Source: an uncultured Clostridium sp. (lineage in GTDB: Bacteria > Bacillota > Clostridia > TANB77 > CAG-508). Taken from it: 64,000 nt of DNA. Below, in pieces: positions 1,454 through 31,074 of this stretch. A program made the translations under genes and the position numbers. Location: positions 22,260-86,259 of the forward strand of contig CAKNQJ010000001.1 of NCBI GenBank assembly GCA_930990645.1, in the 5' to 3' direction. Numbering within the stretch: the first letter of the stretch is position 1; every line of letters starts with the position of its first letter. Below the pieces are notes generated by a model. The model made no database searches, had not been told where the DNA came from, and was given only the letters and a program-made list of their open reading frames with translations.

Positions 1454-1576
1454 GCTTGGAAAATAATTGCATTTTAGCGTTGTTAAACTTCGCTGCGAAA
1501 ATCCTCGACGTACACAAAGTACGCCTCCGGTTTTCTTGCTTGTTTGCCTAGCCAAAATAACAATTCTTTTCCAAGC
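1454..1576 (+). repeat. Family A palindromic intergenic element, copy 1 (~123 bp)
   Basis: Termini GCTTGGAAAATAATTG ... CAATTCTTTTCCAAGC are self-complementary. The core TTAGCGTTGTTAAACTTCGC..GCGAAAATCCTC..ACGCCTCCGGTTTTCTTGC..GTTTGCCTAGCCAAAA is shared with copies at 22204, 22745 and 30876. It starts directly after the PBP2 stop codon. Confidence 0.8.
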
Positions 1577-1629
1577 TATAGAAAATTGTTATTCAGCAAA
1601 ATATAAATTAATAAAGGGAGTAAAAGCCT

Positions 1630-2250
1630 ATGAGTAATAATAGTATTAGTATAAGTATTAAAAAAAATCAAGTAGTGATTAAAGTTGATGAAAATGCAGA
1701 ACAGAGAGAAATTGTAACAGACTTAAAAAAGAAAATGTTAGAACTTAAAAATTTGTACCAAGATGACAAAACACCAATACTAATAACTGGAAAAATCCTT
1801 AAAAATAGAGAAATGGATGAAATACAAAATTTAATAAAAAAATTCCTAAATGTCCAAATTGACTTTGATAGTCCAAAAGTATTAGGATTACATGGAATAA
1901 AAAGAACTTTTTATAAAGAAATAGCAACATCAGAAACAAAATTTCATAAAGGCTCTTTAAGATCTGGACAAAGAATTGAATTTGAAGGGAGTCTAGTAAT
2001 AATTGGTGATGTCAATGCTGGCGCAGAAGTAATTGCAGGGGAAAATATAGTTGTACTTGGAATATTAAGAGGACTAGCTCACGCAGGAGCAAAAGGAAAC
2101 AAAGATGCAGTAATAGAAGCATCTGAAATAGAAGCGGCACAAATTAGAATTGCTGATAAAGTAAAAGAAATAGAAAAAGATACTAATACTATACGCAAAG
2201 TAAAAACATCAGCATACATAAATGATAAGGATGAGCTTATACTGGAATAA
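1630..2250 (+). CDS. minC: Septum site-determining protein MinC
   Basis: 206 aa. The C-terminal beta-helix motif region GSLRSGQRIEFEGSLVIIGDVNAGAEVIAGENIVVLGILRGLAHAGAKG is typical of MinC. RBS AAGGGAG lies upstream. Confidence 0.85.
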   Translation: MSNNSISISIKKNQVVIKVDENAEQREIVTDLKKKMLELKNLYQDDKTPILITGKILKNREMDEIQNLIKKFLNVQIDFDSPKVLGLHGIKRTFYKEIATSETKFHKGSLRSGQRIEFEGSLVIIGDVNAGAEVIAGENIVVLGILRGLAHAGAKGNKDAVIEASEIEAAQIRIADKVKEIEKDTNTIRKVKTSAYINDKDELILE

Positions 2251-2388
2251 GCAAAATTAAGTGGTATGCCAACTGTAAAAAATTGAAAAAACTATTGACA
2301 TAATGAATAATAAAATTAGATAGGGGCACATTCTTAAAGTGTACCCCTATACTTGAAGAAAATATATGTATATATTAATTCTTTAAGC

Positions 2389-3306
2389 TTATAATTTTTT
2401 AATTTCTTCCTTAGACAAACCAGTTAATTTTATTATTAAATCTATAGCCAAATTTTCTTCTTTCATCTTCTTGGCTATTTCTTTTTTACTGGCAGTATTA
2501 CCTTGTTCAATGCCTTGTTCAATGCCCTGCTCAATACCCTGTTTAATTCCATCCTCTACTCCATTGCAATACCCTGTATATTCTGCCTCTTTTTCATCTA
2601 ACAAAGCCTTTTCTCTTAATTCAGCTAATCTTCTAATCTTTTCATCTTGGCTTATTACATCTAACTTATCTTTAGCTTTTTTCATATTTTCATTATTTTT
2701 CATATAATCTGACACCTCTTTACTTTCTGGGTTATCAAAAAAATTTAGCCACTCTTTAAGCTTTTTTTCTTTCTCGGTTGGTTTTATTAACCTATGAACT
2801 TTTGGTATCTCTATTATATTTAATTCAAAATCGTCTGTCAAGATTATTTTCCTTTCTTTTTCTTCAATTATCTTCCACCTGGAGTGAAAACCTAGTTCTT
2901 TCAGACTACCTATTTCAAAATTGGCTAGTAAAATTAGAATTGTCCTTTGCAAATCGTTATAATCTTCGCTTTTCTTAATATTTCTAATATATTGCTTAGA
3001 CCAATAAAACAGCAATCTTTTAATTAAATTCTTTTTGTCAGTCATTTGCATTTCAATGTTACAGTATTCATTGCCATTGATTTTAGCTAAGACATCAACA
3101 ACGCCCATTTTATCTTCAGGCAATTCTCTTCTAAGGACAATATTTTGATTCAAATCAACACTATCTATTTCTTCATCAAGAATGCAATTTAGTAAATCCT
3201 TAGTAATTTTTTCGCTACCCACTTCACCAAAAAGAATTTGAAAAACAACGTCAACTTTTGGTGAAAGAATAGAATTATTTTTTTTCATATTCTCACGACC
3301 TTTCAA
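2389..3306 (-). mobile_element. Rpn/YhgA-like PD-(D/E)XK nuclease family putative transposase (PDDEXK_2 type)
   Basis: The N-terminal SPKVDVVFQILFG...VVDVLAKINGNEYCNIEMQ pattern is characteristic of the family. The C-terminus has a (GIEQ)x4 repeat encoded by a 12-nt tandem repeat (~2497-2545). It sits where minD/minE would be expected. Confidence 0.7.
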
Positions 3307-3636
3307 TTAAATTAATAATTAAAGTACATATTATTTAATTCTAAAATGGAATAAAGGATGAAATGATTGTGATACAGGGAAAAATATAAAGTTAGAACAA
3401 AAAATATGTGAAAGAATTTAAATAGAATTCAAAAAATAAAAGAATATTTTGAAAGAAATATAAAAATTCTCTTTAACTATTGGAAAATAATATAGCATGT
3501 AAATACATAAAAGTCAAGAAAAACTCATCGACAAAATTCGACAAAGTTATATACAATGAAATAAACGGCTGTCGCTTACGACGCCGTGCGTTCTAAATAT
3601 CCAATTGGCAATTGGAAAAATAATATAATTTTACAA

Positions 3637-4050
3637 CTAAGTCAATAGCAATAAAATCAACGCAATAAATAAAAACTCGTCTTTTACACCTTCTTGATAA
3701 AGAAAGAAAATTAGACATATGAGTATGATGTCATCTTGATGCAGCTTTATTCCCAATATTTCAATAATTTCATTGTCGTAATCATCATTTTTTGAAATCT
3801 TAGAAAATTCCTTATTGTATTCTTTATAATTCTTATTTTTACTATCAGAGACAGTTTTCATAACATTATTATGAAAGCTACTTTTGGTGTTTTTATGATG
3901 ACTATTGTTATCACTTTTTCGATTATTTACATCTTGATAAAACTCATCTTTGTAATTTTGAGACCTTTGTGTAGGGCGAGCATTCGCATTTTGTGGATAA
4001 CTATAGTAAGGTCTTGGATAAAAATGTGGAAAAAACGGAAAATTATACAT
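3637..4050 (-). CDS. Hypothetical protein, Tyr/Pro-rich N-terminus (MYNFPFFPHFYPRPYYSYPQ), hydrophobic C-terminus
   Basis: ORF track entry 3637..4068. I prefer ATG at 4050 because ATGTATAA overlaps the upstream stop (translational coupling) and GGTGGTGAG lies upstream. No family recognised. Confidence 0.5.
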   Translation of the reverse strand: MYNFPFFPHFYPRPYYSYPQNANARPTQRSQNYKDEFYQDVNNRKSDNNSHHKNTKSSFHNNVMKTVSDSKNKNYKEYNKEFSKISKNDDYDNEIIEILGIKLHQDDIILICLIFFLYQEGVKDEFLFIALILLLLT

Positions 4051-4471
4051 TTTTCTTATTCTCACCACCTAGGGCGCCAAATATTTGAAAGGCTTTTTCA
4101 AGACCGAATAATTGTACATATTGATCCACTTTTTCTTTTCTACTTTCTTTCAAATATGGCTTTAAAGATAACAAGAGATTAGCTCTAGGGTCATCTTTTT
4201 TAGTATTCATTGCATCCATAACCTGTTTCATTTTCAAAATAGTATTAATATCTATATCTGGTGAAAAAGAGCTTTCTTCATTATTTGAATTATTATTATT
4301 CGAATAGGAAGTATTGCTGTCGTTTGAATCAGAAGAATTGTTATTAGAATTACTATTACTAGCAGAATTACTAAAATTATTAATCATATTCTTGATATCA
4401 TCAGGAATTTGATTATTTTTAATCATATTATTTATTTGATCCATTATATTATTCATATCTGTATCGTTCAT
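4043..4471 (-). CDS. Hypothetical Asn/Ser-rich protein with conserved-looking C-terminal helix region (DPRANLLLSLKPYLKESRKEKVDQYVQL)
   Basis: 142-aa ORF with a strong RBS (AGGAGG, reverse complement of 4478-4483). The central part is low complexity. Confidence 0.55.
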   Translation of the reverse strand: MNDTDMNNIMDQINNMIKNNQIPDDIKNMINNFSNSASNSNSNNNSSDSNDSNTSYSNNNNSNNEESSFSPDIDINTILKMKQVMDAMNTKKDDPRANLLLSLKPYLKESRKEKVDQYVQLFGLEKAFQIFGALGGENKKNV

Positions 4472-4493
4472 ACAAACCTCCTATTTTAAAAAT

Positions 4494-4649
4494 TTAATTA
4501 TTATTCTTATTTTTAATCTGATTTATAATCGCATCAGCATCTTTGGAATTTAACATTTTACTTACTTGAGATAAACCTTGTTCTAATTGCCTTTTATCCA
4601 TTTTGGCAAGCATGCTCATAAGTTCACCCATATTCATATTATTATTCAT
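4494..4649 (-). CDS. Small hypothetical protein, 51 aa (MNNNMNMGELMSMLAKMDKRQLEQGLSQVSKMLNSKDADAIINQIKNKNNN), below ORF-track cutoff
   Basis: Hand translation of the minus strand. It is the first gene of an apparent three-gene minus-strand cluster with the same Asn-rich style. Confidence 0.35.
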   Translation of the reverse strand: MNNNMNMGELMSMLAKMDKRQLEQGLSQVSKMLNSKDADAIINQIKNKNNN

Positions 4650-4811
4650 AAACAACTATCAATCCTTCCTAAGGCAAAATTAGTATTAGCCTTAATATAA
4701 TATATGTTGGAAAACTATAATATAATATTCAAAAATGTAAAAAATGTTACGAATAATAATAAATAACTTTAAGCTTAGGGAACTGAATAACTACTATAAT
4801 TAAACAAGTTA

Positions 4812-4840
4812 ATGTAACAAAAATGTCTTGAAAATGTAAT
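4812..4840 (+). promoter_or_regulatory. Triple 11-bp-phased direct repeat, site A (ATGTAACAAAA ATGTCTTGAAA ATGTAAT)
   Basis: ATGT starts at 4812, 4823 and 4834. It can also be read as TGTAAC-N16-TGTAAT. The third repeat ends 224 nt before ATG 5064. Near-identical sites occur at 33358 and 43061. Confidence 0.55.
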
Positions 4841-5002
4841 ATAAATTTAATATTTAATATGTAACTGCTATTTCCGTAAATTAATAGCATAATTTCTGTA
4901 TAGAATGTAAAGATTTAAGTTATTGAAATTATAAATTAAAATGTTAAAATAGTTGTGAATAAATATATTATAAAAAATTATGTAATTTATTATCGATAAC
5001 CA

Positions 5003-5031
5003 TTGAAATGTGGGCGAAAAAGTAGTATAAT
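5003..5031 (+). promoter_or_regulatory. Sigma-A-type promoter candidate for the 5064-15808 operon
   Basis: TTGAAA (5003-5008), 17-nt spacer, TATAAT (5026-5031). AGGAGG RBS at 5053-5058. Confidence 0.5.
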
Positions 5032-5063
5032 TAATGTTATGATATTATGTTTAGGAGGTAGCA

Positions 5064-8000
5064 ATGAGCAGAGTATTAAACAAACTAATTGCAGTAATGA
5101 TTGTCATACTATTGATAGGGACAAACTTGATATTTCTAGCAACAGAGAGTATAGCAGCATCAAGTGCATATGATTCACAAAATAGTAGGACAAACAATTC
5201 GAATGTGGAATTTAATGCATACTTAGAGGGAGGAGTACATGAAACAAGTATAGATATGTCTTCACAAGATATGAAGATATATTTAAATATTTCTGTGCAA
5301 AATATAGGATACTTAAAAAGTGCAGAAATTAGTTTCGAAAATGCCAACTTTAGCATAAATCCAAACGAAGAGAATAGCTACATAAAAAGCGTAGATAAAG
5401 GAAATAACAAAATACAATTAAACCAAATAAATAAAGGCGAAAATGTAGTAATAGAAATACCAATTCAATTTCTTGCTAAAGATGATGTCGCATCAGACTA
5501 TCTAAATAAAGAATTTGGCACACATTTAGTAGCAGAATATATAGATGAAGATGGAAAAAGTATTTCAATAGATAAAACAATATTAAATAAGCTAACTTGG
5601 ACAGCAGAAACAGAAATAGAAAACACAATGAAAATTAATAAATACATACCATATAAACAAGGAGAAAAATATGGTGTGTTATTACAGATGCTTGTAAATA
5701 ACAAAGTAAAGGATAATAAAGTACCAGTAAAAACGAGCAAAACAACAATAACTGTACCAGAATTAAATGGAACTAAACCAAGTAGCGTATCAGTAATGGC
5801 AAATAACACAAAAGCAACAAATGGACAAGAAGATGGAATAAACTTTAATAATAATAATTATGCATATGATGCAGAAAACAATACATTAACAATAACAGTA
5901 GGAAATGCAGCAGACGGAAACAACATGATAAAATGGAAAAAAGATGCGACAGATGAATATATAGTTACATTTATATATGAAGGACAGGATATATATAACA
6001 AAGTAGTAGAATTACAAAATAGAACTGAACAAGAAAACACACAAAGAGAAATAACAAATAGATCAGACATAAATAGAAATGCAGTAGTTAATGAAGAAAG
6101 TGTAAATGCTAATATTGAGACAGATGAAGAGACTATAAATACAAATCAAGAAAGTACAAATAATGCAGTAATAAATACACAAGTTGATGAAAATGATATA
6201 CAAACTAGTGCACCAGTAACAGAAGAAATTGTAACAGAATTAAAAATAGAAACAAATATAAAAGTAGAAGATACATTATATACATTTGATGGACAAACAA
6301 TAACAAAAGATTTTAATTATAGCAATGAACTAAAAGAAAAAATAGGAGAATTAACGACAGCAGAAATATCTGCAACAAACGAAATAAGTAAAGGATACAT
6401 ATATGCAAACTATGATATAGAAAAAGAAGAAGACAAAAAAGAGACAACATATGGTGTAAAATATGTAGCAAATGTAGAAAATATAAACATAGTAGATAGA
6501 GTAGAGTTTAAAGAACAGATAGATAAATTTAAAGGAGAAGAAAAAGAAGGAGAGGAACAACTAGAAGGAGCAACAACTGTAGGAGACAAAAATTATACAT
6601 ATAATAAAGAAATAAAAATATCTAAAACTATATTTGACAAAATGTTAGGTGAAGAAGGAAAAATAGAAGTATTTGATAATACAAATAACAAAATAGGCGA
6701 AATAAATAAAGACACAGAAGTAAATAGCTCAAATGAATATGCAATAGATATATCAGAAGCAAACAAAAATCAAATAGTTATTAGGACAAGCAAACCAATA
6801 ACAGAAGGAAAAATAGAAATAAACATAACAAAAGCAATAGCAAAAAATATAGACTATTCAATAGAACAAATGAGAGAATTTAAAACAATAGAAACATCTA
6901 TGATAGGAAATGTAATAGAAGACTCAAGTGCCAAAACAGCAAAAATAAATATGCTAGAACCAAAAAGTGAAGCTAGTATAGCAATAAACAAAGAACAATT
7001 ATCAACAGTAACAGAAAATAGTAATGTAGAGTTAAGAGCAACACTAGACACATCATCAGTATATAACTCACTATACAAAGACCCTACTATAAAAATAGAG
7101 TTGCCAGAAGTAATTGAAAACGTAGAAGTAAACAGTATAAAAATGCTTTATGCAGATGGACTAAAAATAAAAGAAGCAACACTATCAGAGGAAGATGGAA
7201 AGAAAGTTATAGACATCAGTATTGAAGGAACACAAACAGAATACTCTACGGAAAACCAAGATGTAAAAGGACCAAACATTATAGTAAATACAAATATGGA
7301 ATTAGACAAACTAGGAACAAATCAAGATGCAGAAATAAAAATGCAATATACAAATAATGCAAACACAGAAAGTGAAGATGAAGCAGAAGAGAAAGAAGCA
7401 AAAACAGACATACCAATAATAGCACCAACAGGAGTAATAGCAACAAATGAAGTATCAAACTACAAAGAAGGAGCAGAAGATGTATTAGAAATAGAAGACG
7501 GAACAAAAGAATTAACAATAGATACATATTCAGATGCAAGAGATGTAGTATTTGGGGGACAAGTAATAAACAACTATGATAATGCAATATCAGATGTAGT
7601 AGTACTAGGAAGACTACCAGTACAAGGAAATAAAAATGTAGATACAAATGCAGACTTAGGCTCAAATATGAACATGACATTAAAACAGGGAATAAGCATA
7701 CAAGGAATGGACACAAGCAATATAAAAGTGTACTATTCATCAAATGTAGATGCTACTAATGATTTAAGTGGTCAAGCAAATGGCTGGACAGAAAACCCAA
7801 GCAACTTAGCAGAAGTGAAATCATACTTAATAGTAGTACAAAATATACAATTAGCAACAGGAGAAGGTTTCCAATTTAACTACACAGCAGAACTAGCAGG
7901 AAACATAGCATACAACAATACAACAAATACAATGTACAAAGTATTCTATAACAACATTTCAGATATAGGAACAATAGCAGAAACAAAAGTGTCACCTATA

Positions 8001-10298: not shown

Positions 10299-10312
10299 GA
10301 AAGGAGGACAAT

Positions 10313-18790: not shown

Positions 18791-18863
18791 AGAGCATTTT
18801 AGGTGTGTTTTTTTATCTAATAGGAAATTACAACAAAATGTTATAAAAAAATCATCAATACTA

Positions 18864-18892: not shown

Positions 18893-18918
18893 ATAGAGCA
18901 TAGATTGGTGGTGAGAAA

Positions 18919-19056
18919 ATGAGATTAACATTTCCATATATATTTAAACCAAATTGCATAAAAAAAGAAATAATAGAGGATATAATATGGCACTGTGAAA
19001 AAGTATATAACACAATAAATTATGACATATATCAAGGAAAAGAAAAAATATATTAA
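18919..19056 (+). pseudogene. N-terminal fragment (45 aa) of an IS200/IS605-family TnpB-like (OrfB) protein
   Basis: MRLTFPYIFKPNCIKKEIIEDIIWHCEKVYNTINYDIY fits the usual TnpB N-terminus pattern (F/Y-x-Y/F-x-I/F-x-PN, then 17 residues, then YN, as in ...YRIYPN...CRFVYN). It is truncated by TAA after 45 codons. Confidence 0.4.
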
Positions 19057-19335
19057 GAAAATATATAAAAAGCTTTAGTCCAAACCTAGAAATAGCGATG
19101 GATATTGGTCGAGAACAACGACCATTAAAGAAAAGGGTTGCCTAGAAATAGGTGGAAACTTAAAAACAACATCTTTATAAAAATGAGTACTAATTTTGAA
19201 TCAGTGCTCAGGGTGAAAATTTTTAATTTTCACTTTTGTTCTGAAAATTGCATGTTTTTGTTGTAATTAGTCCAAAAAAATGATATAGTATATATGCAAG
19301 ATACTAACTTTTGAAGGAAGGAATGATGTTATAGC

Positions 19336-20868: not shown

Positions 20869-20883
20869 TATGGAATTATACAT

Positions 20884-20940
20884 GAAATCCGTTCCAACTT
20901 GCTGGCAGACATATTTTGTCTGTCACATGGAACTACTTAG
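20884..20940 (+). repeat. Family C structured element, short form (C1)
   Basis: GAAATCCGTTCCAACTTGCTGGCAGACATATTTTGTCTGTCACATGGAACTACTTAG. GTTCCA pairs with TGGAAC and CAGAC with GTCTG. It ends 13 nt before the AGGAGG of the 20968 gene. Confidence 0.65.
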
Positions 20941-20967
20941 TGAATAATTTTCTTAGGAGGAATTAAA

Positions 20968-22215
20968 TTGGAACTTATGACAAAGTATCAATATACATAT
21001 TTTATTTATCCATATGTAATTGATGAAAAAGAATACAAAAAATATTTGCAAGGATTACTTAGGAATAAAAAGTGCAAGATAAGATTTTTTGATAAACAAA
21101 AGGATATACATTTGTATACATATTTTTTACCTAGTATAAGAGAGTACGTGTTTTGGTCATTTGGCTTGAATAAAGCAGGAATACGTGACTTTGAAAAAAT
21201 GGATTCTACACTTAAAGCTACAATGCTTTCAGAACATGATTGCAATATTTTTAATTATGAATTGCCAGAAAATTTACAGGGAAAAGTTGATGTAGAGAAT
21301 GGAATATTTTTTGAGATATCTGAAATAAAAATAATATGTTTTAAATCAGGTATATCTTTTTTAATATTTAAGACAAACATAGAAGGAAATGGTAGCTTTT
21401 CAGATTTATTAAATTTTAATTATAAATTTAGAGAAATAAATTCTGTATCATATAATTTAAAAGATTACGAAAACATAAAGATACAGTCAAATAATTTTAA
21501 AGACGTGAAAGATATATCGATGTTGATAAAAGAATTAACAGGTAGATGTAATATTTCTAGGAAGGCCAATATAGGAAATGATAAATTTTTTGTGTATTCA
21601 TATGCATGTCTAGACCAAAAGGACTGGAATGAAAATACAGAAAGCGATGCATTAAACAATTTGTTTGAAAAGTATAGAAGTGTGCAACCAGCAAATTCAC
21701 AGATGATAGATGATGAGTATGCAACTAAAAATAGTAATATAGAAGAAATAAAGAGTATATATAAAAATCAATATATACGATATGGATTTACGATGTCTAG
21801 TACAGTATTATTTACATCAAATATAAACACTACTAATTTCACAGTAGTACCTCAAAAATTTGAAAGTGAATACTTGTATATGTATATCTTGATTTTATAC
21901 AAAAAGATGACTTTAAATAAATTAAATTATCAATTTAAAAATGGATTTAAAGAAGCAGAAAAGGGATTCCTTGACTTTACAAAAAGATTATGGATACAAG
22001 ACATCACAAATGAGGAATTTGGAAAAAGACTAGAAAAAGTATGGAATGAGAAACTAGATATAGAAAATACTTTTGCAAAGTTAAAAAGCGAATATGATGT
22101 GACATATAAGAAGTACAATGTAGAGGAATTAAATAAGAATAATATAGTCACTTTAGTAATTGTGGCAGTGATACTTGTTATTAATGTGCTTGCAATTTGG
22201 ATAGCTCAAAAATAA
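20968..22215 (+). CDS. Hypothetical protein (415 aa) with single extreme C-terminal TM helix
   Basis: TTG start 8 nt after AGGAGG (alternative ATG at 20977). C-terminal IVTLVIVAVILVINVLAIWIA. No family recognised by eye. Confidence 0.65.
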   Translation: MELMTKYQYTYFIYPYVIDEKEYKKYLQGLLRNKKCKIRFFDKQKDIHLYTYFLPSIREYVFWSFGLNKAGIRDFEKMDSTLKATMLSEHDCNIFNYELPENLQGKVDVENGIFFEISEIKIICFKSGISFLIFKTNIEGNGSFSDLLNFNYKFREINSVSYNLKDYENIKIQSNNFKDVKDISMLIKELTGRCNISRKANIGNDKFFVYSYACLDQKDWNENTESDALNNLFEKYRSVQPANSQMIDDEYATKNSNIEEIKSIYKNQYIRYGFTMSSTVLFTSNINTTNFTVVPQKFESEYLYMYILILYKKMTLNKLNYQFKNGFKEAEKGFLDFTKRLWIQDITNEEFGKRLEKVWNEKLDIENTFAKLKSEYDVTYKKYNVEELNKNNIVTLVIVAVILVINVLAIWIAQK

Positions 22216-22327
22216 TTGGGTTTTGGCGTTGTTGAACTTCACATGCGAAAATCCTCAGCGTACTACATACGTACGCCCCCGGTTTTCTTGTTTGTTCGCC
22301 TAGCCAAAACACCAATTATTTTTGAAC
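22204..22327 (+). repeat. Family A palindromic element, copy 2
   Basis: GCTCAAAAATAATTGG...CCAATTATTTTTGAAC termini with the shared core. It contains the last three codons and TAA stop (22213-22215) of the upstream gene. Confidence 0.8.
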
Positions 22328-22357
22328 ATATGAATAAAAGAATTGGAGGAAGAGGTT

Positions 22358-22759
22358 TTGAAAGTCACAACAGGCATTGATGTAATTGAAGTAGAGAGGA
22401 TAAAAAAAGCTATTGAGGATTTAGGAGATAGCTTTTTAAATCGAATATATACAGAAAAGGAAATACAATATTGTGAAGCTTCAAAGACAATGAAATACCA
22501 GCATTATGCAGCTAGGTTTGCAGCAAAAGAAGCGGTGTTTAAAGCAATGTCTGAGTTTATTATTGGAAGAGAAGATGCTTTGTGGAAAAATATTGAAGTT
22601 TTAAACAAAGAGTGTGGAAAACCTTACATTAATGTGGATAAGTTAAGAGAAAATATTAGTAAAGCTGTGGATGATTTTACTTTGGAGAGCATAGATGTGA
22701 GTCTTTCACATATAGCGGAGTTTGCTGTGGCAAGCGCAGTTATACTGGTTGAAAAATAA
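22358..22759 (+). CDS. acpS: Holo-[acyl-carrier-protein] synthase
   Basis: GIDVIEVERI start, ARFAAKEAVFKA and the LSHIAEFAVASAVIL motifs. I prefer TTG 22358 after GGAGGAAGAGG. The track start 22343 is in frame 15 nt upstream. Confidence 0.85.
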   Translation: MKVTTGIDVIEVERIKKAIEDLGDSFLNRIYTEKEIQYCEASKTMKYQHYAARFAAKEAVFKAMSEFIIGREDALWKNIEVLNKECGKPYINVDKLRENISKAVDDFTLESIDVSLSHIAEFAVASAVILVEK

Positions 22760-22871
22760 TTGGATTTTGGCGTTGTTAAACTTCGCATGCGAAAATCCTC
22801 AACGTGCAAAAAGCACGCCTCCGGTTTTCTTGCTCGTTTGCCTAGCCAAAATGCCAATTCTTTTACAACAG
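22745..22871 (+). repeat. Family A palindromic element, copy 3
   Basis: CTGGTTGAAAAATAATTGG...CCAATTCTTTTACAACAG termini with the shared core. It contains the last codons and TAA stop (22757-22759) of acpS. Confidence 0.8.
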
Positions 22872-22953
22872 GGAGAATGAATAAATAAATAGCAAAATTT
22901 AATTCTTTCACAACAGTAAATGTGTAATAAAGAAAAAAGGGGTGAAAATAAAG

Positions 22954-23751
22954 ATGGAGCTTTTTGATTCGCATGCTCATTATAATGATGAGAAATTTGA
23001 TGAGGATAGAGAAGAGTTAATTCAAAAAATTTACAAATCTGGGGTAAATAGATTAATCAATGCTGGATATAGTTTAGAGTCTTCAAAATACGCTTTAGAA
23101 ATTGCAAAAAAGTATGATTGGATGTATACGATTTCTGGAATTTCTCCAAATGACATTCCAGAAGAAAAAAGCAATCTTGAAAAGCAATTAGATGAACTAG
23201 AAGAGTTTATAAATAAAGAATTGAATACTCATAAAATAGTAGCAATTGGAGAAATAGGACTAGATTATTATTGGGAAAAGGACGAAGACAAAAGAAGCCT
23301 TCAAAAAGAAGCATTTATAAAGCAAATAGAGTTAGCAAATAAATTTAATTTGCCAATCGTAATTCACACAAGAGAAGCAGTGATGGATACTCTGCAAATA
23401 GTAAAAGAGCATAATGTAAAAAAGAAAGGAGTATTTCATTGCTGCCCATTAAATAGAGAATTAGTAAAAGAGGCAATAAAGTTGGGATTTTATATATCTT
23501 TTGCAGGACCTGTTACATTTAAAAATTCCAAAAATGCAAATGAAATAATAGAAATGGTGCCATTAGATAAGATTTTAATTGAGACAGATAGCCCATACTT
23601 ATCACCTGAACCACATAGAGGAAAACGAAATGATTCTAGAAATGTGAGGTATGTTGCAGAGAAAATTGCAGAAGTTAAGCAATTGAGCATAGAGGAAGTA
23701 GCAAAGTGCACTTATGAAAATGCTAATAGAATTTTTGGCATAAACTATTAA
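22954..23751 (+). CDS. TatD-family metal-dependent hydrolase/DNase
   Basis: MELFDSHAHYND start (HxH motif), GEIGLDYYW, VIHTREA and ETDSPYLSP motifs. The track start 22942 (GTG) is also possible. Confidence 0.85.
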   Translation: MELFDSHAHYNDEKFDEDREELIQKIYKSGVNRLINAGYSLESSKYALEIAKKYDWMYTISGISPNDIPEEKSNLEKQLDELEEFINKELNTHKIVAIGEIGLDYYWEKDEDKRSLQKEAFIKQIELANKFNLPIVIHTREAVMDTLQIVKEHNVKKKGVFHCCPLNRELVKEAIKLGFYISFAGPVTFKNSKNANEIIEMVPLDKILIETDSPYLSPEPHRGKRNDSRNVRYVAEKIAEVKQLSIEEVAKCTYENANRIFGINY

Positions 23752-23771
23752 AGAAAACGGAAAATAAAATT

Positions 23772-23803
23772 AAAAGCAGTATAAAAAATGCTATACTGCT
23801 TTT
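23772..23803. terminator. Bidirectional terminator hairpin between the TatD-family gene and htpX
   Basis: 12-bp perfect stem AAAAGCAGTATA / TATACTGCTTTT with A/T runs on both sides. Confidence 0.6.
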
Positions 23804-23819
23804 TGTATTAACTTAAAAC

Positions 23820-24713
23820 TTACTTCAAATTCCTTATTGCCTCAATCCTATCATCTATAGAAGGGTGAGTTGAAAATAAACTTGTTTTTCTTTTCTTTCC
23901 ATCTTTTGCTTTAAATGGACTTACTATATACATATATGCAGTAGCATTATTTGCAGTTCTTAATTCATTTGGGTCGCTATCTAATTTTTGGAGTGCTGAT
24001 ATCAAACCATCTGGATTTCTTGTAAGTTCTACTGCACTAGCATCAGCTAAATATTCTCTACGTCTAGATAAAGCAAGTTGCATTAATTGCCCAAAGATTG
24101 GTGCTAATATTAAGCAAATTAATCCAATTAGCATTAATATTGGATTTCCACCTTTCTCGTTATTATCTCTTCCACCACCCCAGAAAAGTGCACGGCTCAC
24201 TGTATCAGCTAGTATTACTATAAAACCAACCATTACACTAACCACTGCGGAAAGTCTAATATCATAGTTCTTTATATGTGATAATTCGTGTGCAACTACA
24301 CCCTCTAATTCATAATAATCCATTTTATCTAATAGTCCAGTCGTAACGCATATAACTGAGTTTTCTGGATTCCTACCTGTTGCAAAAGCATTAGGTTGAG
24401 GGTCATCCACAACATACAACCTTGGTCTGTGTTCTAGTCCAGATGCGACCATCAGCCCATCTAAAATATTATTTAATTTTTCATATTGCTCTTGATCTGC
24501 TGGATGTGCTCTATTGACGGAAAGAACGATTTTATCACTATAGTAATATGATGCCCAGGATGTTGCAATGGCAAATACCATGGCTATAACAATTGAAAGC
24601 TCACCTAAATCAAATGCCATACATACATAGTAAACGATAAGTGTAATTACTAGTAAAAAAATTGCTATAATAACACCTGTTTTTATTTTATTATTTCTTA
24701 TATCTTCATACAT
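23820..24713 (-). CDS. htpX: M48-family zinc metalloprotease HtpX-like
   Basis: HEXXH motif (AHELSHIKNYD), N-terminal TM helices, and the FSTHPSIDDRI C-terminal motif. Confidence 0.85.
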   Translation of the reverse strand: MYEDIRNNKIKTGVIIAIFLLVITLIVYYVCMAFDLGELSIVIAMVFAIATSWASYYYSDKIVLSVNRAHPADQEQYEKLNNILDGLMVASGLEHRPRLYVVDDPQPNAFATGRNPENSVICVTTGLLDKMDYYELEGVVAHELSHIKNYDIRLSAVVSVMVGFIVILADTVSRALFWGGGRDNNEKGGNPILMLIGLICLILAPIFGQLMQLALSRRREYLADASAVELTRNPDGLISALQKLDSDPNELRTANNATAYMYIVSPFKAKDGKKRKTSLFSTHPSIDDRIEAIRNLK

Positions 24714-24797
24714 AATTTATCATTCCTTTTTGGTATTGTGTAGATAACAATTTTTTGGCGATGAAAAATTCCATCGCCATGTAGTTATCAATAAATC

Positions 24798-25352
24798 CTA
24801 TTTACTAAAACTAACTTTTACATTCTTTTTTGCTTCTTCATTATCTACTTCAAATAATGCTTCGGCTGTGAAGTGGAACATTGATGCAACAAGATTTGAA
24901 GGGAAAACCTCCAATTTTGTGTTGTATCTAGTTACAGTATCATTGTAGAATTGTCTTGAATATGAAATCTTATTCTCAGTGTTTGTAAGCTCTGTTTGTA
25001 ATTCTGAAAAGTTTTGATTTGCTTTTAAATCTGGATAATTTTCAGCAACAGCCATAATTGTTTTTAAAGTGTCTGATAATTCATTATCAAGTTTAGCTTT
25101 TTCATCAACAGTTTTAGCATCATTCCAAGAAGAACGTAAATCTGTAACTTTAGTAAGTACTTCAGACTCATGTGTCATATATCCTTTTACAGTTTCAACA
25201 AGGTTTGGTATTAAATCAAATCTTCTTTGTAATTGGACATCAATCTGACTCCAAGCGTTCTTTACTCTAAGTCTCATTGTAACTAAACTGTTATAAATTG
25301 CTATGAAAGCTATAATTATAACTGCTAGTATTATAAGTATAATCCACCACAT
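24798..25352 (-). CDS. lemA: LemA family protein
   Basis: N-terminal TM followed by [39 protein letters not shown], a typical LemA sequence. The pairing upstream of htpX is a common arrangement. Confidence 0.85.
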
Positions 25353-25511
25353 AACTTGTTTCCTCCTTTTTTCAATATAATATTATAATAACATAATTAT
25401 TAATATTATACAACGATTTTGTGAAAAGTATGTGAAAATTAAATTTGAAAAAATTAGTAATATTTTTGGTACAAGCAACATATAATATAATATGGCCATT
25501 AATTTGAATAT

Positions 25512-25597
25512 AAAGTCCGTTCCATCTTGCTGGTAAACATATTTTGTATTCTCCATGTATTCGAATAAAAAATATGTTTACCACGTGGAACTACTTT
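25512..25597 (+). repeat. Family C structured element, long form (C2)
   Basis: AAAGTCCGTTCCATCTTGCTGG-TAAACATATTTT-[GTATTCTCCATGTATTCGAATAA]-AAAATATGTTTA-CCACGTGGAACTACTTT forms a long imperfect hairpin with a 14-bp perfect inner stem. Confidence 0.7.
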
Positions 25598-25717
25598 ATG
25601 GAAAAAAATTAAATCATAAAGTAAATTACTGCAATTAAGTAGCTTTAATGAATAGGTAACATAAATACAAATTATCAAATTCAACAGGGGCAATTAAAAG
25701 CGGATTTCGTCCAAAAT

Positions 25718-25746
25718 TTGACAGGAAAGAATATATATGGTATAAT
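25718..25746 (+). promoter_or_regulatory. Consensus sigma-A promoter for the 25783 gene
   Basis: TTGACA (25718-25723), 17-nt spacer, TATAAT (25741-25746). RBS AAAGGAGGG lies downstream. Confidence 0.6.
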
Positions 25747-25782
25747 AACTTTGTTGCTTTTAAAGGAGGGAACAAATTAATT

Positions 25783-26790
25783 ATGAAAGGTAATGATAAA
25801 GCGTCCATATCGCTGAGAAAAATAGTATGTATTAGTATAATATTTATTTTTATACTAAGTGTAGGCGTAATGGCAGGCAATGTCAGCTTAAAAAATGTTA
25901 AAATAGTACTTTCAAGTGGTTACGAAATGGATATTTTAACAACTAAAACAAGTGTAAAAGAAATTTTAGAAGAAAATCATATTGTATTATTAGAAGATGA
26001 AAAGGTAACACCAGACACAAGTGAAGAACTTTCAGATAATAATACTATTATAATATCTAAGGAGTCAGAAGATGTAGAGGTAAGTGATAAAGTAGAAAAA
26101 TCTTCTGAAGTTACAACTGAAGATATATTAGATAATTATTCTAAAATAACAGAAAAGATAGTTGTTGAAGAAGAAGTAATACCTTACGAAACAATTACAA
26201 AAGATGTTACGACAGGAAGTGGAACTAAACAAGATAGAGTCGTTCAACAAGGAAAAAATGGATTAAGAGAAATTACTTATAAAGTAAAATATCAAAATGA
26301 TGAAGAAATAGAAAAAACAAAAATTTCATCTAAGGTTGTAAAAAAACCAGTTGATAAAATTATAGAAGTTAGAACAAAGCAAGTTACAACAAGAAGTAGC
26401 AGTACTTCAAGAACAACATATAGTGGGGGAAAATGGTCATATTCTTCAAGTGAATTAGATTTATTATGTGCTATAACTGCACAAGAATGTAGCTCAAGCT
26501 ATACAGGTGCTCTAGCAGTTATAACTACAGCATGTAACAGAACACAAAGTAGTAGTTGGAGAAGATATGGGTCTGACCCACTAAGTCAATATAAAGCTCC
26601 AAGTCAGTTCTGCTATTCAATAGATAGCCATTGGAGAAAAAGATTAAATGGAAATTATCCATCATATGTTAAACAAGCAGTTTTAGATGCATTAAATGGC
26701 AAGAGAAATCACAGTTATTTATCATTTAGAGCAGCTGGTAGCCACTCTGGTGAAATAATAGGTGGAAATGTATATTTCAATTCATTATAA
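25783..26790 (+). CDS. Secreted DUF348 + G5 domain protein with SleB-like cell-wall hydrolase-type C-terminal domain (tentative)
   Basis: DUF348-like VKIVLSSGYEMDILTTKTSVKEILEENHIVL. G5-like ETITKDVTTGSGTKQDRVVQQGKNGLREITYKVKYQNDEEI. The C-terminal LLCAITAQEC...ALAVITTACNR...SQF resembles the Hydrolase_2 family. Confidence 0.7.
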   Translation: MKGNDKASISLRKIVCISIIFIFILSVGVMAGNVSLKNVKIVLSSGYEMDILTTKTSVKEILEENHIVLLEDEKVTPDTSEELSDNNTIIISKESEDVEVSDKVEKSSEVTTEDILDNYSKITEKIVVEEEVIPYETITKDVTTGSGTKQDRVVQQGKNGLREITYKVKYQNDEEIEKTKISSKVVKKPVDKIIEVRTKQVTTRSSSTSRTTYSGGKWSYSSSELDLLCAITAQECSSSYTGALAVITTACNRTQSSSWRRYGSDPLSQYKAPSQFCYSIDSHWRKRLNGNYPSYVKQAVLDALNGKRNHSYLSFRAAGSHSGEIIGGNVYFNSL

Positions 26791-26817
26791 TATAGATTAA
26801 AAGCAATAAGTTGGTGG

Positions 26818-26845
26818 AAGGAGATGGGAGACCATCTCCTTTTAG
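26818..26845 (+). terminator. Terminator hairpin
   Basis: AAGGAGATGG-GAGA-CCATCTCCTT followed by TTT. Confidence 0.5.
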
Positions 26846-26907
26846 TTGAAAAATAATTATAATTTACTAATAAAAATTTAAATAAATTTTGAAAAAGGAG
26901 TAAATAG

Positions 26908-27675
26908 ATGAAGTTAGTATCATGGAATGTAAATGGATTAAGGGCAGTAGTAACTAAAGGATTTGAAGATTTTTTTAAAGAGATAAATGCGGATGTATTT
27001 TGTATTCAAGAAACAAAAATGCATGAAGAGCAATTGGATGATAATATAAGAAAGATTTTTGGTGGGTATCATTGTTATTGGAATAGTGCGGAGAAGAAGG
27101 GATATTCAGGTACTGCAGTTTTTTCTAAGGTAAAGCCATTAAATGTTACATATGGTCTTGGAATAGAAGAACATGATAAAGAAGGAAGAGTAATCACAGT
27201 TGAATATGAAAAATTTTATTTAGTAAATTGTTATACTCCTAATGCAAAAAGAGAATTGGAAAGATTAGACTATAGGATGATATGGGAAGATGAATTTAGG
27301 AAGTATTTGTTAAAACTAAATCAGACAAAACCAGTTGTACTTTGTGGAGATTTAAATGTAGCACATGAGGAGATAGATTTAAAAAATCCGAAAACTAATA
27401 GAGGTAATGCTGGATTTACCGACGAAGAAAGAGGCAAGATGACAGAGCTTCTTGCCTCTGGATTTACTGATAGCTTTAGATATCTATATCCAGATAAAAC
27501 AGATAGTTATTCATGGTGGTCATATATGTTTAAAGCAAGAGAAAAAAATGCAGGATGGAGAATTGATTATTTTATAGTATCTAAGTCAATAGAAGATAAG
27601 ATACAAGAAAGCTATATTTTCTCTGAGGTCATGGGAAGCGACCACTGCCCTGTGGGATTAGATTTGGAGTTATAA
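26908..27675 (+). CDS. xth: Exodeoxyribonuclease III
   Basis: MKLVSWNVNGLRA start, the CIQETK, GDLNVAH and SDHCPV motifs, 255 aa. Confidence 0.9.
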   Translation: MKLVSWNVNGLRAVVTKGFEDFFKEINADVFCIQETKMHEEQLDDNIRKIFGGYHCYWNSAEKKGYSGTAVFSKVKPLNVTYGLGIEEHDKEGRVITVEYEKFYLVNCYTPNAKRELERLDYRMIWEDEFRKYLLKLNQTKPVVLCGDLNVAHEEIDLKNPKTNRGNAGFTDEERGKMTELLASGFTDSFRYLYPDKTDSYSWWSYMFKAREKNAGWRIDYFIVSKSIEDKIQESYIFSEVMGSDHCPVGLDLEL

Positions 27676-27685
27676 AAGAAAGGAA

Positions 27686-28840
27686 ATGCGAATGGAAAAT
27701 AACAAGAAAAAACTAACTAAATGGCTGTATTGGTTTTTGTTTGCTGTAGCTATAATATTAGTCTATAAGACATTAGATAATTTTACTGCTATAGGTAACT
27801 GGATCAAGAATTTTTTGGTTGCGCTTATGCCATTTATCATAGGTTTGCTTATAGCATATTTATTTTACATACCATGCAGAAAAATAGAGAGTGTATATAA
27901 AAAAAGCAAGAAAATAAAATTTATTAGTAAACGAGCAAGAGGGCTTTCGATTTTAACAATATATTTAATTGCTTTGTTAATTTTAGTAATAGCAACAAAT
28001 TACTTGTTGCCAATAATTTCAAGCAGTATTATTGATTTGGCTACTAATATACAAGGATACTATAGCTCATTAATGAATAATATTGATTATTTGCCGGAAG
28101 ATTCAATATTAAAAAACGAATTATTCTTAGATATCATTAATAGTGTAAGAAATATAGACTTAAAACAATTTTTTAATATGAACAAACTTGCAGAATATGC
28201 ACAAGGAGTAATAAATGTTGCAGGAGGAATATTTGATTTCTTTGTCGCAATTATAGTGTCAGTATATTTGCTATTACAAAGAAAAGAAATATTGGAATTT
28301 TTAAAGAAATTAGGAAGAGCATTATTTAAAGAAAAGACATATAGGAATTTTGGAAAATATTTTGATAGAACAAATAACATATTTTTCAATTTCTTAGCAG
28401 GACAATTGCTAGATGGATTTGTAATAGGAGTAATCTCATCAATTGCAATGTCAATCTTAGGAGTAAAATATGCAGTATTGTTAGGATTTATGATAGGCAT
28501 ATTTAATTTAATACCATACTTTGGAGCAATAATCGCAGTAATAATCTCAGCTTTAATAACGCTATTAACAGGAGGATTTTGGCAAGCGCTTATCATGGTT
28601 ATAGTTGTAACAATATTACAGCAAATAGATGCAAATATAATTAATCCAAAAATAATAGGAGATAAGTTAAAAATTAGTCCACTACTTGTAATATTTGCAG
28701 TATCATTAGGAGGAACATACTTTGGAGTATGGGGAATGTTTTTATCAGTTCCAATAGCAGCTGTCATAAAAGTATTAATTACAGACTATATTGAATGTAA
28801 AAATAGGGGAAAGGCAGTAAAATCCAATAACGAAAAATGA
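27686..28840 (+). CDS. AI-2E family transporter (PerM/YhhT-like, UPF0118)
   Basis: Polytopic membrane protein with the typical NLIPYFGAIIAVIISALITLL and PLLVIFAVSLGGTYFGVWGMFLSVP segments. Confidence 0.85.
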   Translation: MRMENNKKKLTKWLYWFLFAVAIILVYKTLDNFTAIGNWIKNFLVALMPFIIGLLIAYLFYIPCRKIESVYKKSKKIKFISKRARGLSILTIYLIALLILVIATNYLLPIISSSIIDLATNIQGYYSSLMNNIDYLPEDSILKNELFLDIINSVRNIDLKQFFNMNKLAEYAQGVINVAGGIFDFFVAIIVSVYLLLQRKEILEFLKKLGRALFKEKTYRNFGKYFDRTNNIFFNFLAGQLLDGFVIGVISSIAMSILGVKYAVLLGFMIGIFNLIPYFGAIIAVIISALITLLTGGFWQALIMVIVVTILQQIDANIINPKIIGDKLKISPLLVIFAVSLGGTYFGVWGMFLSVPIAAVIKVLITDYIECKNRGKAVKSNNEK

Positions 28841-28931
28841 CAAATTGTGCAATAGTAGGAACATCACTAACTGATAGACGTTATGGATACACTTTTTGAC
28901 TTAAAATGTTAAAAAGTGCTGTCTGAAGAAC

Positions 28932-28990
28932 ACAAAAGTGGCTTATAGATATAATTAGAAGTACTAATTACATTTATAAGCCACTTTTGT
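28932..28990. terminator. Bidirectional hairpin between convergent genes
   Basis: 16-bp perfect stem ACAAAAGTGGCTTATA / TATAAGCCACTTTTGT with a 27-nt loop. Confidence 0.5.
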
Positions 28991-29005
28991 ATGAAATGGA
29001 TAATA

Positions 29006-29545
29006 TTAAGAATCATTATCACTCAAGTAAGAATAATGAGTATTGACATACTTTTGAAGAGATTCCATTGATTTTGATAATTTCTGAGATTCCATTTTGA
29101 TTTTCATATCTAATGTGTATGAAGCATCATCGATTCTATAATCCATCCTCTCTGTTAAAGATTTAACTGCATCGTCAATCTTAGTATTAAGCCTGTCTTC
29201 AACTTCTTGAAGTTTAGCATCAAATCTATCGCTTAAATCTTGAATTCTAGCATCAAGTTTCCTATCAAATTCATCGCTTAAGTTTTGAAGTTTAGTATCA
29301 AACCTGTCACTAAGTTCTTGAATTTTAGTGTCGATCTTCTTATTAAGAGATTCATTGACATCATCGATTTTTTGATTAAGAGATAAATAAACGTTATCTA
29401 TTCTTTCATTTAGAACATTAAAAACATTGTCTATTTTATCATTTAAAGTTTTATGATAAACATCGACTTTAGTATTGAGATTATCAAATTTTGTATCCAT
29501 TTCATTTAATTTAGATAATATTAGAGCTACTGCATCTTGATCCAT
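29006..29545 (-). CDS. Hypothetical coiled-coil protein made of 11-residue (hendecad) repeats
   Basis: About 11 consecutive 11-mers, e.g. LNERIDNVYLS LNQKIDDVNES LNKKIDTKIQE LSDRFDTKLQN LSDEFDRKLDA RIQDLSDRFDA KLQEVEDRLNT. RBS GGAGGTGAG. No TM or signal peptide. Confidence 0.6.
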   Translation of the reverse strand: MDQDAVALILSKLNEMDTKFDNLNTKVDVYHKTLNDKIDNVFNVLNERIDNVYLSLNQKIDDVNESLNKKIDTKIQELSDRFDTKLQNLSDEFDRKLDARIQDLSDRFDAKLQEVEDRLNTKIDDAVKSLTERMDYRIDDASYTLDMKIKMESQKLSKSMESLQKYVNTHYSYLSDNDS

Positions 29546-29869
29546 TTTCTCACCTCCAATCTTTTAACTTAATAATAAAAGTATAACACAATATAAAAAG
29601 AGATGCAAGGAAAATATTTCGACAAAAACTGACAAAAATAGGTAAAACGCTTCATAAATCTACGTTTCTCTTTGCTTATCTAAAACAAAATTTTTTAAAA
29701 ATTTTATTTTATGAAAAATATTTTAGAAAAAAATAAAATGTGTTGGGGCAATAAATTTGAACACTAAAAAACTTAATAAAAACTTAATAAAAAATTAATA
29801 AATTTTCACTTTTGTTCTTAATAATAGTTTGCTATACTAGTTACAATGCATATTTTAAATATATTTATT

Positions 29870-30027
29870 AAAGTCCGTTCCATCTTGCTGGTAGATATAT
29901 TAAGCATCTAAAGTCCGCCTCTATCAAAGCTGTCACATATATTTTGTACTCTCCATGTTTTCGAGTAAAAAATATATGTGACACGTGAGGCTATATAGTA
30001 AAATATATATCTACCACGTGGGACTAC
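29870..30027 (+). repeat. Family C element carrying a second family C element nested inside it (C3 outer 29870-30027, inner ~29910-29996)
   Basis: The outer arms are AAAGTCCGTTCCATCTTGCTGGTAGATATATT ... AAATATATATCTACCACGTGGGACTAC. The inner copy is AAAGTCCGCCTC...CTGTCACATATATTTT-[GTACTCTCCATGTTTTCGAGTAA]-AAAATATATGTGACACGTGAGGC. Confidence 0.7.
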
Positions 30028-30181
30028 CATGTCAAAATAAAATGACAACGCATACTTTGAAAATGCAAAGTCATGAATTGTAATAATGATATAATTCATG
30101 CTATAATAGATGCAGGACAGGACAAAACAAGCCCGTCCCCAATTGTCCTAAAATTTTAAGATTAGAAAGGGATGTAATTTA

Positions 30182-30889
30182 ATGTACAACATACTCGTAT
30201 GTGATGATGATAAAGAAATAGTAAAGGCAATAGAAATATATTTAAGTAAAGAAGGATATAACATTTTAAAAGCATATGACGGAATGGAAGCTTTAGAAAT
30301 ATTAAAAAAGAATAATGATATTCAATTAATAATTTTAGATATTATGATGCCAAAGTTAGATGGAATTGAAACAGCAAATATAATTAGAAAAGATAAATCA
30401 ATCCCAATTATTATGTTATCTGCAAAGTCAGAAGATTACGATAAAATTTCTGGTTTAAATAATGGCGCAGATGACTATGTAACAAAGCCTTTCAATCCAC
30501 TAGAATTGATAGCTAGAGTGAATTCACAAATTAGAAGATATACTAGCTTAGGCTCTATGGTAAAAAAAGAAGAGGATACCAATATTTATAGATCTGGAGA
30601 TTTAGTTATAAATGATTCTACCAAGGTTGTTGAAGTAGATGGAAAAGAAGTAAAATTAACTCCTACAGAGTACAATATTTTAAAATTTCTTACAAAGAAC
30701 AAAGGCATTGTATATTCTATAGAACAAATTTATGAAAATGTATGGGAAGAAGAAAGTTATGGGGCAGAAAATATAATAGCCGTACATATAAGACACATTA
30801 GAGAAAAAATAGAAATAAACCCAAGAGAGCCTAAGTATCTTAAGGTTATTTGGGGGATTGGGTACAAAATCGAGAAATTCGAAAGATAA
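30182..30889 (+). CDS. OmpR/PhoB-family response regulator
   Basis: Receiver domain (DDD...ILDIMMPKLDG...LSAK) and winged-helix domain (LTPTEYNILKFL...VWGIGYKI). The last codons plus TAA lie inside Family A copy 4. Confidence 0.9.
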   Translation: MYNILVCDDDKEIVKAIEIYLSKEGYNILKAYDGMEALEILKKNNDIQLIILDIMMPKLDGIETANIIRKDKSIPIIMLSAKSEDYDKISGLNNGADDYVTKPFNPLELIARVNSQIRRYTSLGSMVKKEEDTNIYRSGDLVINDSTKVVEVDGKEVKLTPTEYNILKFLTKNKGIVYSIEQIYENVWEEESYGAENIIAVHIRHIREKIEINPREPKYLKVIWGIGYKIEKFER

Positions 30890-31074
30890 TTGTTTTTGGC
30901 GTTGTTGCACTTCGTTTGAAATTTAATGGGCGTAGCAAAGAGTACGCCTCATAAATTTCAAACTCGTGCGCTTAGCCAAAAAGCAATTCTTTTTCGAATT
31001 AAATAAGAAGAAAGATTAGATGGAGAAAAAGTTCGAACTATTGTGTCTAGCCAAAAACAATTATCTTTCGAATT
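30876..31074 (+). repeat. Family A element, copy 4 (30876-31000) plus an extra right-end fragment (31045-31074)
   Basis: Left end AATTCGAAAGATAATTG (30876-30892) is imperfectly complementary to 30984-31000. It is perfectly complementary to CAATTATCTTTCGAATT at 31058-31074. The central stem has variant but still complementary sequence (TTTGAAATTTAATGGGCGTA...TACGCCTCATAAATTTCAAA). Confidence 0.7.

Follow-up and report, generated by a model that had tools for sequence, protein, structure and literature searches.

Family A is a palindromic repeat in a 64,000-nucleotide stretch of DNA from an uncultured Clostridium sp. (assembly GCA_930990645.1, contig CAKNQJ010000001.1, positions 22,260 to 86,259 of the forward strand), referred to here as the window. 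Its placement with respect to genes is unusually strict, as nearly all copies touch or directly follow the stop codon of an upstream gene in the same orientation as the element, usually within operons. The neighbours of the four full copies in the window are housekeeping genes in operon order: a penicillin-binding protein (PBP) transpeptidase gene, copy 1 and minC; a membrane protein gene, copy 2, acpS, copy 3 and tatD; and a response regulator gene, copy 4 and a histidine kinase gene. The copies and their fragments, all on the + strand, are the following (ORF, open reading frame).

1454..1576, +, copy 1, full element, between the PBP transpeptidase gene (stop 1451-1453) and minC (start 1630)
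22204..22327, +, copy 2, full element; the upstream 415-aa membrane protein ORF is closed by the element TAA (22213-22215)
22745..22871, +, copy 3, full element; acpS ends ...LVEK-stop at the element TAA (22757-22759), and tatD is next
30876..31000, +, copy 4, of a sub-family with a different central stem, with ends AATTCGAAAG/CTTTTTCGAATT
31041..31075, +, solo right arm (GTCTAGCCAAAAACAATTATCTTTCGAATT), part of a diverged tandem duplication
26846..26865, +, left-arm remnant TTGAAAAATAATTATAATTT, 20 nt; a full copy stands at the equivalent site in the close relative L024
3612..3637, +, mini hairpin TTGGAAAAATAATATAATTTTACAAC, like the outer arms alone (compare the deletion derivative at L103); its assignment to the family is tentative

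The upstream ORFs of copies 1 to 4 end at 1453, 22215, 22759 and 30889. In copies 2 to 4 the last codons and the TAA lie within the left arm (...CAA AAA TAA, ...GAA AAA TAA and ...GAA AGA TAA), the response regulator ORF closing ...KFER-stop on the element TAA of copy 4 (30887-30889) with the histidine kinase gene downstream. Copy 1 was called from the base after the TAA, and the first base of its hairpin is the last base of the stop codon. The start of acpS lies about 31 nt past the hairpin of copy 2. The four aligned copies have a mean column identity of 77%, with TTTTGGCGTTGTT and TAGCCAAAA nearly invariant, and the left-arm 20-mer has four matches with at most one mismatch in the window, as opposed to none in 100 shuffles. 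All four fold, whichever strand is taken, into imperfect hairpins of about 60 bp (z-scores between -3.2 and -7.8). The original prediction had placed four + strand copies at these positions, three with the TAA inside the left arm and the fourth beginning after the stop, and both the sequence check and the ORF ends agree with it. It had also described a central stem of copy 4 that is different yet complementary, which is confirmed, and outer ends complementary within each copy: GCTTGG/CCAAGC, CTG(G)TTG/CAACAG and AATTCG/CGAATT are present, but the G(C)TC/GAAC pairing of copy 2 is weak.

From the right arm of copy 4 onward, a unit of about 75 bp is duplicated in tandem (30962-31036 and 31036-31110; 60 of 82 columns invariant). 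The duplicated unit of 30962-31110 consists of the right arm of the element, a Shine-Dalgarno (SD) sequence and the start of the histidine kinase gene as far as its fourth codon (ATGGAGAAAAAG). In another part of the window, a terminator-like hairpin (26820-26843, GGAGATGG-GAGA-CCATCTCC and then TTTT) follows a G5-domain gene and lies directly 5' of the remnant at 26846-26865; at this site the element formerly sat behind a terminator and not on a stop codon.

Hairpin structure and extent of the family

A pattern scan of one genome per species (TTGGCGTTGTT-N55-80-TAGCCAAAA), which favours intact copies, gave at least 112 loci, designated here by L and a number. A profile built from the pattern matches and run with nhmmer over the 8-kb loci (1.1 Mb) and the window gave at least 107 copies, with strong discrimination between strands (about 118 bits as opposed to about 20 bits on the opposite strand). 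The copies come from at least about 44 Clostridia species represented by metagenome-assembled genomes (MAGs), and a single MAG, CAMOBD01, has at least 16 among the matches listed. The predicted multi-copy palindromic family, resembling MITEs (miniature inverted-repeat transposable elements) or repetitive extragenic palindromic (REP) sequences, therefore exists, with further copies beyond the window. Pattern matches in Dolichospermum/Anabaena (L007, L021, L043 and L060) were rejected as false positives, consisting of a conserved 80-nt stretch without palindromic structure.

The family is apparently undescribed and belongs to a clade of uncultured low-GC gut Clostridia. The contig that holds the window is of gut metagenome type. 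Rfam gave no match at the gathering threshold across the whole window, the plasmid and phage collections held no match to the element, and a literature search on the core motifs returned chance matches only. The sole match to the element in a permissive Rfam search (cmscan) of 22150-22950, comprising copies 2 and 3, linked the outer stem to mir-548 (window 22194-22336, - strand, AAAAGTAATTGCGGTTTTTGC against AAAAATAATTGGTGTTTTGGC), at 19.8 bits versus 90 and an E value of 0.62, and it is probably due to chance. The mir-548 microRNA family is derived from the human mariner MITE Made1, and because of this likeness a TA duplication was tested; no regular TA flank was found, TA...TA standing at the edge of the hairpin stem in only about 20% of copies.

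The outer stem has the consensus R-N-TTGAAAAA-TAATTG ... CAATTCTTTTCCAA-N'-Y and is followed by a conserved asymmetric internal loop (TTTTGGC-GTTGTT ... CTA-GCCAAAA), by middle helices that covary and by a conserved apical hairpin (ACGTRC-loop-GYACGCCTCC). Covariation was analysed in a MAFFT alignment of 92 distinct copies against 500 shuffles. The consensus structure comprises 33 pairs, 28 of them with compensatory changes; the proportion of paired cells was 95.6%, compared to 84.2% in the shuffles, and the covariation score was 0.339, compared to 0.126 in the shuffles and about 0.07 with slid partners, the observed values being reached in none of the 500. Covariation thus strongly supports that the hairpin is real and maintained.

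Outside the invariant TAATTG/CAATT the stem continues for a further 9-13 bp (mode 11). Of these pairs, eight usually read TTGAAAAA/TTTTCCAA, in which one A-C mismatch is fixed; the commonest outer arms share this mismatch and another, T-C, at the TAA. The next two or three pairs outward vary freely and still pair (columns 6/142: UA 33, GC 25, AU 13, CG 12; columns 5/143: GC 39, AU 28). Pairing at the three positions immediately outside TTG/CAA was counted in 97 copies and occurs in 90%, 77% and 56% of them, as opposed to 29-41% with shuffled partners; farther out it is at background.

Diverged relatives were found in a Bacillota MAG (L077), in one Legionellales MAG (L047 and L069) and in two Gammaproteobacteria MAGs (L061 and L064). 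They share the architecture, with the outer stem, TTTTGGC-GTTGTT-GC, covarying helices, CAYGTAC-loop-GTACRC(C)TCC and GC-GCCTA-GCCAAAA. The asymmetric GTTGTT/CTA loop is conserved from Clostridia to Legionellales and other Gammaproteobacteria, and, judging from sequence, a core kept in this way across phyla points to a putative protein partner. In the Legionellales copies (L047:2895-3005 and L069:6563-6690) long stop-to-stop ORFs read through the element, which may lie there in frame within genes. At L064:2998-4923, three copies surround an isochorismatase gene and a gene with an M17-peptidase N-terminal domain, and the ORF of the latter ends inside a copy.

Placement at stop codons

The upstream ORF is co-oriented with the element in 71 of 75 cases, and tandem arrangements are ++ in 50 copies versus -- in one. 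In 57 of 71 copies the stop of the upstream gene is found 0 to -20 nt from the element TAA, and the gap between the stop and the base of the hairpin has both its mode and its median at -1 nt (interquartile range, IQR, -3.5 to 4.5), which makes the final base of the stop codon the first one to pair. On the other side, the next ATG stands at a median distance of 61 nt (IQR 32-94), and the left gap is the smaller one in 54 copies as opposed to 9. An ORF entering the element is closed after a few codons, with room left for the ribosome-binding site of the next gene. The left arm has stops in two frames, a TGA in TTGA and a TAA in ATAATT; the TAA is used by upstream genes in 7-10 copies and the TGA in about 5-6. 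At L059, a change of AAA to TAA makes a stop in the frame that the consensus leaves open, with a matching change in the right arm. In addition, about 13-17 of 102 copies have a tail, TGTGCCTTnAGAAAGGAATG, outside the variable pairs (background 2%), and since the downstream ATG follows this tail by 9-12 nt, it supplies a Shine-Dalgarno sequence.

Comparison with orthologues indicates how the element takes part in gene ends. The response regulator of the close relative L024 ends GYKIEKF-TAG, and the only element there is found 33 nt downstream, inverted, whereas the ORF in the window reads TTC GAA AGA TAA into copy 4 and ends ...KFER-stop as opposed to ...KF-stop. Similarly, acpS orthologues without a full element end in VFE-stop, VYEKM-stop and ILN-stop (L115, L117 and L118, respectively), and in L116 acpS ends in VFER-stop on a 23-nt remnant of the left arm. 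Some C-termini thus derive from the element. The suggestion in the original prediction that the element re-creates gene ends holds for the response regulator and for the genes using the element's own stops, and the comparison it had proposed with orthologues lacking the element gave C-termini that differ in both acpS and the response regulator.

Mobility, variable ends and rival explanations

Two copies in the same MAG with unrelated flanks (L011 and L020) are 100% identical, and one site is filled in L103 and empty in L035 at 98% flank identity, so that both recent copying and deletion of copies occur. "Empty" sites often retain the left end of the element, as L059, which retains TTGAAAAAT; the second site of L103 retains both outer arms joined at a single AATT, and is better read as a deletion between two AATT motifs. 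Such remnants imply that losses by deletion are common. Exact look-ups of the MinC and response regulator proteins for empty sites at strain level returned filled sites only.

No duplication of the target accompanies the element. Direct repeats between the flanks are not in excess (7.1 observed, 6.9 under the null), the left 9-mer of a copy is not repeated on its right flank, and no palindromic target duplication was found either. Duplications resembling ribosome-binding sites at two sites proved not to be general, and a small pre-existing hairpin as the target was discarded, solo outer hairpins being rare (about 1-2 in 1.1 Mb). As to a parent insertion sequence (IS), no split pair of left and right arms around an ORF was found in the 1.1 Mb of loci, and the gene flanked by inverted copies at L064 is the isochorismatase gene; a tblastn search of the 8-kb loci for an IS200-type TnpA, made with an approximate query sequence, gave no match. 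The PD-(D/E)XK "transposase" gene beside copy 1 was considered as mobiliser and rejected, as its homologues lie near elements at only two other loci (L102 and L029). This nuclease-family gene (PF12784, 2389-3306, - strand) is carried by a strain-variable insertion of 1.39 kb at 2252-3637, absent from the otherwise near-identical contigs L195 and L196, and the mini hairpin at 3612-3637 lies at its right edge.

Of 15 comparisons between orthologous copies, with orthology inferred from flank similarity, 10 gave 92-100% identity and five gave 77-86%; the copies are more conserved than the flanking coding sequence, of which the upstream 300 nt are 70-90% identical. Divergence is 5.8% in stems and 13.1% at unpaired positions. 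This conservation argues for selection on structure or for homogenisation.

According to these data, we consider it probable that Family A is a mobile, non-autonomous hairpin which has become adapted to the gene junctions of operons or is retained there, and which is probably transcribed as an RNA hairpin, both its mobilising enzyme and its function being putative. Several points weigh against this interpretation. Neither a transposase or parent IS nor a target duplication was found, and mobility is therefore deduced solely from how the copies are distributed. Every empty site may be a secondary deletion, no certain virgin target and no true insertion junction having been observed. Simple inheritance of the ends does not explain outer arms that differ on cores 96% identical, and gene conversion rather than function could underlie the high conservation of orthologous copies. 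Mismatches are G-T in 189 cases and A-C in 97 overall, and 97 versus 97 once a single fixed T-G pair is set aside, and with no clear strand signal in these counts a role at the RNA level is not favoured over one at the DNA level. Finally, gene contexts are stop-to-stop ORFs of at least 100 codons on MAG fragments and not curated annotation.

The outer ends might instead arise from the flank itself. During insertion or later replication, the left flank, at the gene end, would then be copied in inverted form: the right arm would snap back by its 3' end onto the left arm and be extended on the upstream coding sequence, by hairpin-primed synthesis or template switching, and each copy would obtain complementary ends specific to its locus. 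We regard this as unlikely, even though several observations agree with it: the closing pairs are of all four Watson-Crick types with no link to the core sub-family, cores 92-96% identical have quite different, self-complementary outer arms (L059/L036, L012/L038 and the two copies of L015), and the native stop codon is inside the stem in L008, L049, L010, L031 and L104, the left flank of L049, TAAAAT, being present also in the empty orthologue L114. Moreover, orthologous sites show concerted double changes, for instance C-G versus G-C in L035 and L103 at 96-97% flank identity, and overall there are 18 double changes in stem pairs of orthologous copies, 12 of them compensatory, against 2.1 expected. 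However, de novo templating would not recreate the fixed A-C mismatch of TTGAAAAA/TTTTCCAA and the T-C mismatch at the TAA, which characterize the commonest arms. Identical end variants also occur at unrelated loci: L011 and L020 have the same ends, AATTCGAAAG...CTTTTTCGAATT recur at non-orthologous loci (window copy 4, L005/L015 and L024), and GGTTG...CAACCAGATT recur in L078, L025 and L099. In the long, tail-bearing variant, the variable right-hand bases lie between the hairpin and the conserved tail, that is, inside the repeated unit, so at least part of the apparent flank belongs to the element, and no true pre-insertion site was observed. The inverted flank duplication mentioned in the original prediction is consequently not upheld, given the shared end variants and the internal position of the variable bases. 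In our reading, the "copy-specific" ends belong to the hairpin of the element itself, as its outermost covarying pairs, partly carried with it and partly re-matched in place; compensatory change would preserve their pairing, either because the hairpin is selected or by template switching from arm to arm.

It could also be argued that the element is mainly a cis-regulatory RNA of the host, inherited vertically and selected gene by gene as a signal for processing, stability or translation termination, with marginal mobility. Identical copies at unrelated loci of one genome, presence and absence at 98% flank identity and the many decayed remnants are difficult to reconcile with this proposal, as are four copies in 64 kb beside functionally unrelated genes, the lack of a strand-specific wobble signal and the inversion of the element at the response regulator-kinase locus of a close relative. 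Thus we find it rather improbable, despite the strong covariation with stems more conserved than loops, the extreme co-orientation with genes and fixed stop-codon placement, the core architecture retained across phyla, and orthologous copies that are kept, and better conserved than the flanking genes, where these are only 70-83% identical. Hairpins immediately after stop codons and in constant orientation would likewise suit gene 3' ends marked by intrinsic (Rho-independent) terminators or by recombination sites like the attC of integrons; attC sites, too, are imperfectly palindromic (57-141 bp), their structure being conserved and their sequence variable, and contain unpaired bases. Both identities are nonetheless highly improbable. 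The terminator alternative of the original prediction is not supported, because the stem lacks a following U-tract and the right flanks are not rich in T, a scan of 22000-23100 for terminators and promoters gave none within copies 2 and 3, and copies are found inside operons (response regulator-histidine kinase, PBP-minC). As for attC, the flanking genes are syntenic housekeeping genes and not cassettes, the ends are variable (R-N-TTG...CAA-N'-Y) and without RYYYAAC/GTTRRRY boxes, and a Pfam scan of ORFs in the first 33 kb gave no integrase.

Proposed mechanism and relation to known repeats

As a mobile hairpin of operon junctions, the element would be co-transcribed and act as an RNA hairpin between cistrons. 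To terminate at or inside the base of the stem, a ribosome would have to melt 10-15 bp, as may occur with REP sequences within 15 nt of a stop and with ERIC in Yersinia, and the long stem could block 3' exonucleases or be a substrate for RNase III. In E. coli, REP sequences lower translation when the stop is under 16 nt away, according to a passage of PMC12306157 that cites Liang et al. 2015. In Yersinia, opening of the ERIC hairpin by the ribosome exposes an RNase site in an orientation-dependent manner, and orientation-dependent effects on RNA are described for ERIC and Correia elements, with RNase III cutting proposed for the latter (PMC2229807). Spread without duplication, together with the conserved asymmetric loop, suggests an enzyme specific for single strands or hairpins, and the element may have spread by such an enzyme leaving no duplication (RAYT/IS200-like or similar). 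A bolder and rather doubtful version is that of a mobile "intercistronic cassette", which would bring its own stops on the left and, in one lineage, a Shine-Dalgarno sequence, would have its base re-matched to the upstream coding end by hairpin-templated synthesis, and would be moved or read by an enzyme recognising the GTTGTT/CTA loop.

Among known systems, REP/REPIN sequences with RAYT (TnpA-REP) are also short, high-copy, non-coding intergenic hairpins without target duplication (PMC3116915, PMC8266576, PMC3733652), and in both groups compensatory change maintains the hairpin and copies persist for long at orthologous sites. Many REPs lie within 15 nt of a stop codon with a possible effect on translation, as stated in one passage of PMC12306157. 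However, the halves of Family A are not simple inverted REP copies (left GGCGTTGTT as opposed to GGCTAGGC, the reverse complement of the right arm), its consensus has neither the GTAG nor the CGTC tag, and no RAYT gene was seen near it within the 8-kb loci. Moreover, its hosts are Clostridia, as opposed to mainly Proteobacteria for REP, and its co-orientation with the upstream gene is far stricter. The ERIC/IRU repeats of enterobacteria and Yersinia (PMC2229807) resemble it in being imperfect palindromes of about 125-127 bp in transcribed intergenic regions of operons, with high conservation between species. They are unrelated in sequence; Family A differs also by its occurrence in Clostridia MAGs, by stops that upstream genes use, by its SD-tail sub-family and by the lack of a TA duplication.

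Correia/NEMIS, RUP and other MITEs with terminal inverted repeats (TIRs) are likewise multi-copy elements of about 100-150 bp that fold end to end, are co-transcribed as RNase III-type substrates and are sometimes fused to ORF ends (PMC2229807). These elements have TA target duplications, and RUP has a known IS partner, neither of which was found for Family A in the loci covered. With about 125 bp, many non-coding copies and an outer stem of 9-13 bp complementary in nearly all of them, Family A looks like a TIR-type MITE, but it has no direct target-site duplication and its ends are functionally asymmetric. Rickettsia palindromic elements (RPE) are palindromic repeats that enter protein-coding sequence in frame within genes and are translated, whereas Family A closes the ORF within 1-3 codons. 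Family A therefore works like REP/REPIN, ERIC and Correia elements and does not have the defining properties of TIR-type MITEs, REPINs, terminators or attC sites. Its distinctive traits are the strict contact with stop codons and strict orientation, stops that are actually used, an SD-bearing sub-family and a core kept across phyla.

The window also encodes giant repeat proteins in its second half. A 2251-aa ORF at 34885-41640 contains coding repeats of about 75 nt every 246 bp or so, with an Asn-rich low-complexity stretch of NNNS type (40.83-41.16 kb). From about 42450 to 58000 there are dozens of RCC1-like repeats (GDGxVW..GxNxxGQLG), with six super-repeats of about 1392-1398 bp.

If our interpretation is right, extrapolation from four copies in 64 kb gives on the order of a hundred copies per genome. 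Hairpin repeats would then set many gene ends and add one to three element-encoded residues to the proteins concerned, which would matter for the annotation of MAG proteomes. The near-absolute co-orientation and the contact with stop codons would make Family A a clean natural system for the taming, or domestication, of selfish hairpin repeats in operons. Moreover, these data are relevant to a possible tuning of termination, of mRNA decay or of translational coupling by stop-codon hairpins in Firmicutes.

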